From contig OZ024743.1 in NCBI GenBank assembly GCA_964016885.1, forward strand, positions 17,670,001 through 17,734,000: a stretch of DNA of 64,000 nt. Reading direction: 5' to 3'. Shown piece by piece: positions 60,601-62,229 of this stretch. The stretch's first letter is position 1. Each line of letters begins with the position of its first letter. Both the position numbers and the translations under genes were made by a program. The notes below the pieces were generated by a model that saw only the letters and a list, made by a program, of their open reading frames with translations, was not told the origin of the DNA and did not search any database. This DNA is from Eledone cirrhosa. Taxonomy: Eukaryota.

Positions 60601-62168
60601 CCTCAGTGGCCGTATCTCTGTTCCAGGTATTATTTATCTCAGTATTCAGATCATTGTCTGCTTCGGGTGGTTCCTCCGTTCTCAGGACCTCCTCACCTTC
60701 ATTTCCCACCGGCTCGCTTGTCTGGCATACTACACCCGCCATCTCCAAGCCATTCTCTCTGCTCAGTTCCTCCAGTTCCAGCTCGCTTATCCACCCATTA
60801 GTTCCTATTACCCGAGCCTGCCCGGCCAATTTTTGTTCATCTAATTTAAATAAACCAATCTCGTTCCAGATGTTATGCATCCGTCTCCTGTAGCCCCTCT
60901 CCTTGGGGTTACTTTTCAGGTAGCATTGCATAACAGTTCTATTCAATTCTTTCGTCCAGTTGGTTCTGGCCCCTTTCCTTCTTCTTCTTCCTCCAACGTC
61001 AGCAGTATTTAGTTGACAGTCAGGTTCCTGCTGCTGAGCCAGGGGGCACCTGTTGGGTGAGAGTCTGTCACATGACGTTCTAGTCTCCATTTCACCGTTA
61101 TTCGAACTGTTTATGTTCGATATTTAAACACTCTTATCGAGGATTGGCGAATGTATGTTTACATAGCCATCTGTGGATCCGCCATCCCACTTGGCCCTTG
61201 TGTGGCATTATCACCACGCTGTATACGAACACACATAAACAAACAAACACACGGGCAGAAAGGGCCCCAAAATTGAATAAGCATAAGTTTCATTGTCATG
61301 TAGTATTCGAATGTCTGACTTAGTTTTTGTTTTTTAAGTTTTACTTTTTCCCCCCTCTTCTCTGTCTGTCCGCCTGCTTCTCTCTTCATTCTTATTTTCT
61401 TTACGTTTTGGGGGTTTCTTTTTTTGTTTTTGTTTTTCTCTGTTTGTTTTTCTCGTTTTTTGCTGTTGTTGCTGTGCTGCTTTGGTTTTGTTGTTTGTTT
61501 TTTCTTTTTTCTTTTGAGTCTATCTATATATTTTGATGCCTTCCTCTTTTTTAGTAGTAGGGATTCTATAAGGGAAGAAGACGCACGAGGTGACGGAGGT
61601 CATGAAATCGCTCCCGTAAGTTTTGAATTTTTAACATATTTAAATCATTTGTGAAATAACAACTCTTAGTACAAATGCTACGTAAAGCACCCGGCTTGAG
61701 CCCCAAAAAATTCGGACCCAAAATATATTGGTATAAGGCTCAAATATTCAAATATTCAACTTTGTATTGTACACTGTATATCCCCCCACAAAAATGGCTA
61801 TAAATGGAAGAAGAATACCCCCCCCCCCCTCCTCTCCTCTGGCTACACTATATAGGACAGCTAAACTCACGAACACCAGAAACTAGATACACCACCCACC
61901 CCATCATCGGTGTACACTAAACACAACAGCATTTTCACCTTCACCGCCACCGCTCACTACGGCCATCATTACCACCACTATCCCATCACCGCCGCCACCA
62001 CCCCTTGACTCCTTCACTGCTGCTGCCACCGCTACAGCACCATCACTACAGTAATACGGTCGCATCACCGCCACCACTGCCTCGGTATCGACATCACCAC
62101 CACCACTGTCTCAGTATCGCCAGCGCCGCCAGCCTCCCACTTCTCCCTGCTGGCTGCTACTACTTCCA
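57627..62168 (-). mobile_element. Full-length Dong family A element with its 5'-most ~600 bp inverted
   Basis: ORF pieces 61090 to 57753; 61569-62168 is the reverse complement of ~830-1434; (ATT)n on both sides. Confidence 0.95.
57753..61090 (-). pseudogene. R4/Dong single ORF (Myb-like N-terminus, RT, CCHC, restriction-like endonuclease), few disruptions
   Basis: [46 protein letters not shown]...HIVSEC; RHD; PDLVV..DVACP..K. Confidence 0.93.
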
Positions 62169-62169
62169 T

Positions 62170-62196
62170 ATTATTATTATTATTATTATTATAATA

Positions 62197-62229
<33 letters not shown>
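62170..62229 (+). repeat. (ATT)n spacer, representative of ~14 such tracts delimiting array members
   Basis: Tracts start at 1435, 24611, 30651, 36558, 40898, 42181, 43017, 43494, 49530, 53624, 53863, 54397, 57601 and 62170, all ATT on +. Confidence 0.98.

Follow-up and report, generated by a model that had tools for sequence, protein, structure and literature searches.

The first 597 bases of a full-length, RLE-type, Dong/R4-like retrotransposon (copy B of family A, minus strand, 57614..62168; identified by self-BLAST and tblastn) are inverted with no net loss of sequence. The copy lies in a window of 64,000 nucleotides, by which we mean the whole stretch of DNA that was analyzed. The inversion is real, involves a full-length copy of an RLE element and is exceptionally clean, and the sample is this single case. 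The structure and polarity of B, both its junction sequences and an inverted repeat at its breakpoints can be read directly from the DNA. As for the mechanism, our best single guess is that the segment was flipped during insertion by twin priming (probability of about 0.5), and an origin coupled to the insertion, all routes taken together, is likely. These weights and those expressed in words below are rough judgements and not computations. A single copy does not prove twin priming, and other routes give the same junctions.

We compared B with copy A (minus strand, 1..1434), an uninverted sister of which the 5' part alone lies in the window. By self-BLAST, positions 1-828 align directly with 60746-61571 (98.2% identity), while positions 825-1434 align in inverted orientation with 62174-61569 (94.2% identity, with gaps). 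The non-inverted part common to the two copies (minus strand, 60746..61571) comprises the ORF start and the proximal 5' UTR. The inverted 5'-terminal segment (plus strand, 61572..62168) corresponds to A 1431-831, and its plus strand reads as the element RNA from the first G onward. Base-level alignment shows that the direct part can be extended to A828 and that the inverted part can already start at A825, and the net loss is therefore zero; the strictest reading allows a loss of at most 5 nt (A826-830). This agrees with the sequence-only reading, a first inspection of the same DNA, which had described a flip of the terminal ~600 nt with almost no loss. B is flanked by an (ATT)n tract of 20.3 units on its 5' side (62169..62229) and by a short one at its 3' end (57599..57613). 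The same reading had proposed to count 5' inversions across family A. Within the window, B is the only case among the three family A copies having a 5' end and among the ten Dong-like copies overall, with no further 5' inversion in the other nine Dong-like copies or in the eight APE-type pieces.

The polarity of the event is given by copy C (minus strand, 36592..40895), a diverged full-length paralog found by self-BLAST and used as outgroup. C is 81-88% identical over the ORF and the 3' part, aligns directly across the breakpoint region of A (673-905 versus 40201-40443, 68.7%), although the bases right at the breakpoint are diverged between the two, and borders its (ATT)n tract with a terminus of ~110 nt that is also found in A. 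Since the paralog has the orientation of A, B is the derived form. The inverted orientation as family consensus, which the sequence-only reading had named as grounds for abandoning its interpretation, is thus ruled out. The terminal ~110 nt of the 5' UTR (61572-61677 in B, 1326-1431 in A and 40790-40895 in C) are 77-80% conserved across the three copies, unlike the middle of the UTR, which barely aligns among them, and likely constitute a promoter or RNA element. We also considered the inverted block as a small DNA transposon with terminal repeats inserted in a TAA site. This was dropped because the same 110 terminal nt also adjoin C's own target, and because the alignment of C continues through the internal site.

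The assignment of family A to the Dong/R4-like elements, already made in the sequence-only reading, is well supported by domains, motifs and target, rather than by a tree with named elements. A single ORF (minus strand, 57699..61090) appears to encode an N-terminal helical domain, RT, CCHC and RLE. In B this ORF spans ~1130 codons and is broken by one frameshift (near 59745-59749) and three stops (60157, 59240 and 57755), which makes B a dead copy. When a full-length homologue was used as tblastn query, amino acids 53-1158 of 1158 were covered on B. The translated ORF P0002 contains CxxC..H..C, RHD and RPDL motifs, which we take to be the CCHC and RLE motifs, and there is a match to the C-terminal region of the solved R2 proteins 9nl3, 9dou and 9nl2 (E 8e-6 to 4e-5). 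The CCHC pattern is found in 120 and the PD motif in 119 of the 120 homologues listed. A CCHH finger was detected in none of the 120 homologue N-termini listed, nor is one visible in the translated ORF P0001. No informative family name occurs among the 120 homologues listed, the cluster members or the Atlas clusters; the neighbours in the Atlas are eukaryotic.

R4/Dong elements are described as having no N-terminal zinc fingers, unlike R2, and a diverged SANT/Myb-like N-terminal domain, with the Dong branch inserting in (TAA)n repeats (PMC7998251). The predicted model of the family A N-terminus contains a confident helical domain (51-130, pLDDT 88-97). Its structural neighbours include many Myb, SANT and trihelix domains mixed with other helical folds, all with Z < 7 (Zeste, Z 5.5, rmsd 2.4, 63 aligned residues; also GT-1, NgTRF, Tbf1 and the ISWI SANT). 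The predicted domain is therefore best described as consistent with the SANT/Myb-like domain of R4/Dong; Pfam Myb gave no match in 16 proteins and Foldseek of the N-terminal model returned none at E <= 0.001.

The window hosts a cluster of non-LTR retrotransposons packed within (ATT)n tracts. Ten RLE-type copies, all on the minus strand, fall into two families with ~37-40% protein identity: family A (A 1-1431, C 36592-40895, D 40923-42179, E 53893-54396 and B 57614-62168) and family 2, with five copies. Eight pieces of APE-RT elements, which we take to be Tx1-like, are also present, seven of them on the plus strand (Pfam Exo_endo_phos, RVT_1, zf-RVT). The (ATT)n tracts abut all nine Dong-like 3' ends of the window (9/9), as well as the 5' ends of A, B and C. 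Overall, 20182-64000 together with 1-4000 form a nested array of ~17 copies, in which RLE Dong-like (minus) and APE-type (plus) elements share common (ATT)n tracts, with each of the two enzymes expected to nick a different strand of the same microsatellite.

Several other features of the window deserve mention. Positions 45442-49535 and 49536-53629 form a head-to-tail duplication of 4094 nt with 19 mismatches (99.5% identity), separated by ATTATT alone and with an APE-RT ORF of ~1200 aa open in both copies; recent unequal crossover, tandem insertion and assembly artefact are alternative origins. The family 2 copy at 24638-27427 has an ORF start (~27220) and 5' UTR, an internal deletion of ~1.2 kb near 26360 with 4-nt microhomology, and no (ATT)n tract at its 5' end, which adjoins a truncated APE-type element at 27428. 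A 28-nt palindrome (27387-27414) lies beside this 5' end, and the UTR (27200-27385) looks structured but matched no Rfam family. In copy C, the RT region lacks ~75 nt at 38075-38086, deleted between direct repeats of ~10 nt. An APE-type 3' fragment on the minus strand (9860-10819), ~79-80% identical to the cluster copies, ends in (AAC)n instead of an ATT tract and possibly represents a sister family with a different microsatellite target. Long inverted-repeat structures (8101-9320, 11438-13067, 13384-14874 and 14902-16792), including 2.7 repeats of a 468-bp unit with an inverted partner, are probably nested non-autonomous DNA transposons or foldback elements. Outside the retrotransposon cluster, 6543-7667 on the minus strand holds an open frame of 374 codons.

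The inverted segment shows microhomology at its outer junction and a putative one at its inner junction. The inner one (61568..61571) reads ttcta-TAA-gggaag, with a TAA|G that also marks the native 5' junctions of A and C. As noted in the sequence-only reading, TAA (61569-61571) is common to the internal site and the native 5' flank, and the shared stretch extends to aTAA if the flank was in register before the event, as it is in C. This junction contains no unit of the ~20-unit tract. In A, the native junction TAA|GGGAAG (1434-1426) has its TAA out of register with the tract at 1435-1488, a weak hint, from one copy, that the element RNA may carry TAA. In B. mori Dong, an HDV-like ribozyme makes its cut at the element's 5' end, following the TAA repeats (PMC3774820), and with such cleavage in family A the inner TAA would not be an RNA-derived microhomology. 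Our search for a 5'-end ribozyme gave no Rfam match over the window (on 61540-62230, a single low-complexity match far below the cut-off), and a home-made HDV descriptor found no fold common to A, B and C and none starting at G1.

The outer junction (62169..62174) reads cttcca-T-ATTAT-tatt, where ATTAT is common to the target and the internal RNA site and the preceding base is in the target register. The ATTAT match had been recognized in the sequence-only reading, but the site given there, ttccacATTAT, is the reverse complement of A, whereas B reads ttccatATTAT: base 62169 is T, in the (ATT)n register, where A predicts C. Matches to the target end of at least 5 nt occur at only 11 of the 4537 element positions, which represent 7 distinct sites, and those of at least 4 nt at 41. 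For comparison, six 5'-truncated Dong-like junctions of the window have perfect matches of 0, 0, 0, 1, 3 and 4 nt. A reciprocal flip at the DNA level also accounts for four of the five nucleotides of the outer microhomology.

The sequence-only reading missed one feature of the breakpoint, an inverted repeat that favours folding back of the cDNA. In copy A, the breakpoint site (plus strand, 825..839) consists of a target-like ATAAT and, after it, an imperfect copy in inverted orientation of the 5' end of this element (GGAAG-N-AG). This site, ATAATGTGGAAGTAG, is the best inverted match of the whole element to the native junction ATAA|GGGAAGAAG (rank 1 of 4474). When the target bases are left out and the 9-nt terminus is used, it is among 3 of 4474 positions (window-level, 18 of 4462, 0.4%), and across eight lengths and three scoring schemes the number of inverted matches ranges from 2 to 64 of 4474 positions. 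The repeat without target bases thus has P ~0.004-0.05, in a test chosen after the fact. Among the seven target-like sites, the breakpoint site alone has an inverted match to the 5' end. In terms of DNA duplex energy, its rank is between 7 and 28 among ~190 loci, with better pairing at a site ~20 nt away, which rules out the breakpoint as the energetically best fold-back site.

The same complementarity is visible at the RNA level. When the uncopied RNA is folded alone, pairing between nt 2-6 and the final 15 nt is highest at 830 (0.92, the top of 78 grid points) and reaches at least 0.5 at nine of the 78 points. The helix between the 5' end and the breakpoint is predicted in fragments of 600-632 nt and has probability 0.0 in four longer fragments (732-1431 nt). 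The predicted stable helix is a weak lead, and the inverted sequence match, the duplex pairing and the RNA helix are three views of a single signal rather than independent proofs.

Under twin priming, the first cDNA would have started from the 3' end, run through ~4 kb and stopped at A825-829, just short of the bases with which the RNA 5' end is predicted to pair. At A825-829 the upstream (AAT)n end, being free, would anneal to AUUAU and prime a second cDNA reaching the RNA 5' end; the adjoining base would be a terminal mismatch or differ in an RNA variant. The two cDNA ends would then join via TAA/TTA, probably aided by the neighbouring GGAAG/CTTCC complementarity, before repair fills in. We infer all these steps, including the use of RNA as template.

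Several observations fit this sequence of events. One breakpoint falls exactly at the junction between element and target, and the absence of tract units from the inner junction is expected if the RNA 5' end set the limit. The 5-nt outer match is rare in the element and longer than the 0-4 nt at truncated junctions, and base 62169 is in the target register and differs from A. The pairing of the uncopied RNA peaks at 830, next to the proposed stop. TAA perhaps travels with the RNA and would then be usable for pairing between the two cDNAs, as the out-of-register junction of A weakly hints. Inverted length and microhomologies are within the range of L1 products. Finally, twin priming requires a free 3' target end, and the 13-bp TSD of R4 corresponds to a 3' overhang (PMC6895275).

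Other observations weigh against twin priming. A DNA-level flip gives both junctions with one mismatch. The inverted repeat would help the two cDNA ends to pair, but it is optional here and required by the rival routes, and the breakpoint is the sole one of seven target-like sites to have it. The RNA helix is lost in longer contexts and is the same signal as the repeat. Most joints in L1 (89%) lie in the 3' 2 kb, whereas that of B is near the 5' end. A cut like that of the B. mori Dong ribozyme would leave the RNA without TAA (PMC3774820), and in an R2 structure the nicked end of the second strand is kept away from the RT site (10.1101/2024.11.11.623112). Moreover, this is a single event in one copy.

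For these reasons we word the mechanism more cautiously than the sequence-only reading, which took the structure to imply internal priming on the RNA. That conclusion does not follow, since a flip reproduces the junctions with one mismatch and the inverted repeat favours cDNA fold-back. Nor does its further claim of staggered cleavage before the end of reverse transcription, as neither TSD nor stagger is readable in the (ATT)n tract and fold-back can do without an early cut. The top-strand end may even come from another enzyme, because APE-type elements are inserted into these tracts as well, with the opposite orientation; by the logic of TPRT, the first nick of the APE type would fall on the strand in question.

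A stronger version of twin priming, to which we give little credence, is that the family carries a hotspot, made of the target-mimic AUUAU adjoining the complement of the RNA 5' end. The uncopied RNA would close a 600-nt loop, stall the first cDNA and present the priming site to the (AAT)n end, and the loop would bring both cDNA ends together. If so, lossless 5' inversions should recur at one site genome-wide, and they would be the first in vivo record of an RLE element whose second target end is free and used by the RT before cDNA synthesis ends.

The most serious alternative to twin priming, although clearly less probable, is that the cDNA folded back during insertion. Here a full-length first cDNA would lose its RNA, and its 3' end (...CTTCTTCCC, with or without TTA) would anneal to the internal TAATGTGGAAGTAG and prime the second strand. 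A nick at the bulged base (A829-831) would then open the 600-nt loop, and end joining would connect it to the upstream target, with no need for an early second nick or for RNA priming. This route needs the inverted repeat, and the breakpoint is indeed the top inverted match to the native junction. There are also precedents. R2 proteins in cells produce snap-back after full-length cDNA, with the upstream target joined to antisense sequence (PMC11371274), and R2 snap-back at low frequency is also reported in PMC11331408. Self-annealing of a large hairpin followed by cleavage has been proposed for pure inversions beside L1 insertions (10.1101/2024.12.14.628481). On the other hand, the duplex energy of the site is surpassed at other loci, including the one ~20 nt away, and in our reading of PMC11371274 snap-back synthesis would duplicate sequence, whereas B has no duplication. 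Zero loss further demands a nick within ~3 nt of the loop base, and the fifth matching base of the outer junction is left to chance.

A normal insertion of B followed by inversion at the DNA level, through template switch or repair of tract nicks, seems rather unlikely. The flip would have occurred between the imperfect inverted repeats ATAA-TGT-GGAAGTAG and ATAA-G-GGAAGAAG, and one 13-nt repeat would explain both junctions together. In a simulated reciprocal flip, an allele with in-register TAA yields both junctions with one mismatch and zero loss. The cluster also contains other microhomology-associated rearrangements, namely the ~75-nt deletion of copy C (~10 nt shared), the ~1.2-kb deletion in family 2 (4 nt shared) and the 4094-nt tandem duplication. 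However, among ~20 equivalent tract units the crossover would have to occur in the first one, with neither exchange inside the longer GGAAG match. An additional C-to-T change is needed at the junction base, at ~1-3% divergence, and starting from an out-of-register allele such as that of A requires a further 1-nt indel. A breakpoint exactly at the 5' junction would also be unlikely a priori.

An artefact of assembly or amplification is improbable, even if the cluster is dense in repeats and its 99.5% identical tandem duplication of 4.1 kb (19/4094 mismatches) might itself be an assembly artefact. With 17 differences in 590 sites and four indels relative to A, the inverted block is no displaced fragment of that copy. 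A chimera would also rarely have two balanced junctions, both with plausible microhomology. Least probable of all is that the inverted piece stems from a different RNA, belonging to a sister subfamily, or that the inverted form is a propagating subfamily: the substitutions relative to A (11/822 in the direct and 17/590 in the inverted part; P-value = 0.052, Fisher test) do not differ significantly, the difference disappears against the direct UTR alone (P-value = 0.15) or when clustered changes are merged (P-value = 0.66), A and C are both in normal orientation, and zero loss is hard to obtain from two RNAs, so that two different sources for B were rejected.

For RLE elements, the timing and the agent of second-strand cleavage in cells are not yet settled: R2 protein with a dead RT nicks this strand in vitro, and the question of whether R2 protein makes the nick in cells is described as unresolved (10.1101/2024.11.11.623112). 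Errors at the 5' junction matter for the gene-insertion tools now being developed from R2-type proteins. So far, 5' inversion has been taken as nearly L1-specific (PMC4245944, PMC2912911). A native Dong-like inversion offers a cheap genome-wide test, as the three mechanisms predict different breakpoint patterns. We found no 5'-inverted native Dong/R4 copy in the literature searched, which covered few subscription papers and does not establish absence from print; a term search of a 2026 R2 review (PMC13580325) returned no occurrence of 'inversion', 'twin' or 'snap'.

Twin priming was described for L1 (PMC2912911). The view that it is mainly a mammalian L1 phenomenon, expressed in the sequence-only reading, agrees with cell assays in which 5' inversions came from L1 in human cells, bar one Nimb-2 insert among more than 200 (PMC4245944), but has to be qualified by the antisense 5' junctions made by R2 proteins (PMC11371274). 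Human L1 products have a median inverted length of 666 bp and outer microhomology of 1-9 bp, with 18 of 273 joints balanced (7%) and 292 of 330 (89%) in the 3' 2 kb (10.1101/2021.12.20.472354); 132 of 287 joints (46%) lie within 20 bp (PMC12016303). B resembles these products in that the inverted 5' piece (~600 nt) abuts the upstream target and the 3' piece is not inverted, in the microhomology at the outer and, putatively, the inner junction and in the joint close to the priming site. It differs from them in being RLE and not APE, in its microsatellite target without a readable TSD, in its full length, the inner junction being formed by the true 5' terminus, in its balanced joint near the 5' end, and in the inverted repeat (11 of 14 nt) that connects its breakpoints.

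B shares with R4/Dong elements a single ORF with RT and RLE, the lack of an N-terminal zinc finger, the (TAA)n target and the 5' junction TAA|G (PMC7998251, PMC3774820), and its predicted N-terminal helical domain is consistent with the Myb/SANT-like one (PMC7998251). The HDV-like ribozyme of B. mori Dong (PMC3774820) was not detected at the family A 5' end. The local inversions remodelled by hairpins at L1 insertions (10.1101/2024.12.14.628481) are likewise pure inversions, several hundred bases long and located at one end of an insertion, in which homology is present at the fold and scarce at the join; they involve mostly flanking DNA in cancers and cell clones, whereas B inverts its own 5' end. 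The R2 snap-back junctions seen in PRINT (PMC11371274, PMC11331408), a class for which the authors cite twin priming (PMC11371274), also come from an RLE protein and join the upstream target to antisense sequence, often after full-length cDNA. Those junctions were obtained with engineered systems in human cells, from short reads and with extra synthesis on cDNA (PMC11371274, PMC11331408), whereas B is a native genomic copy with a resolved inversion and no duplication.
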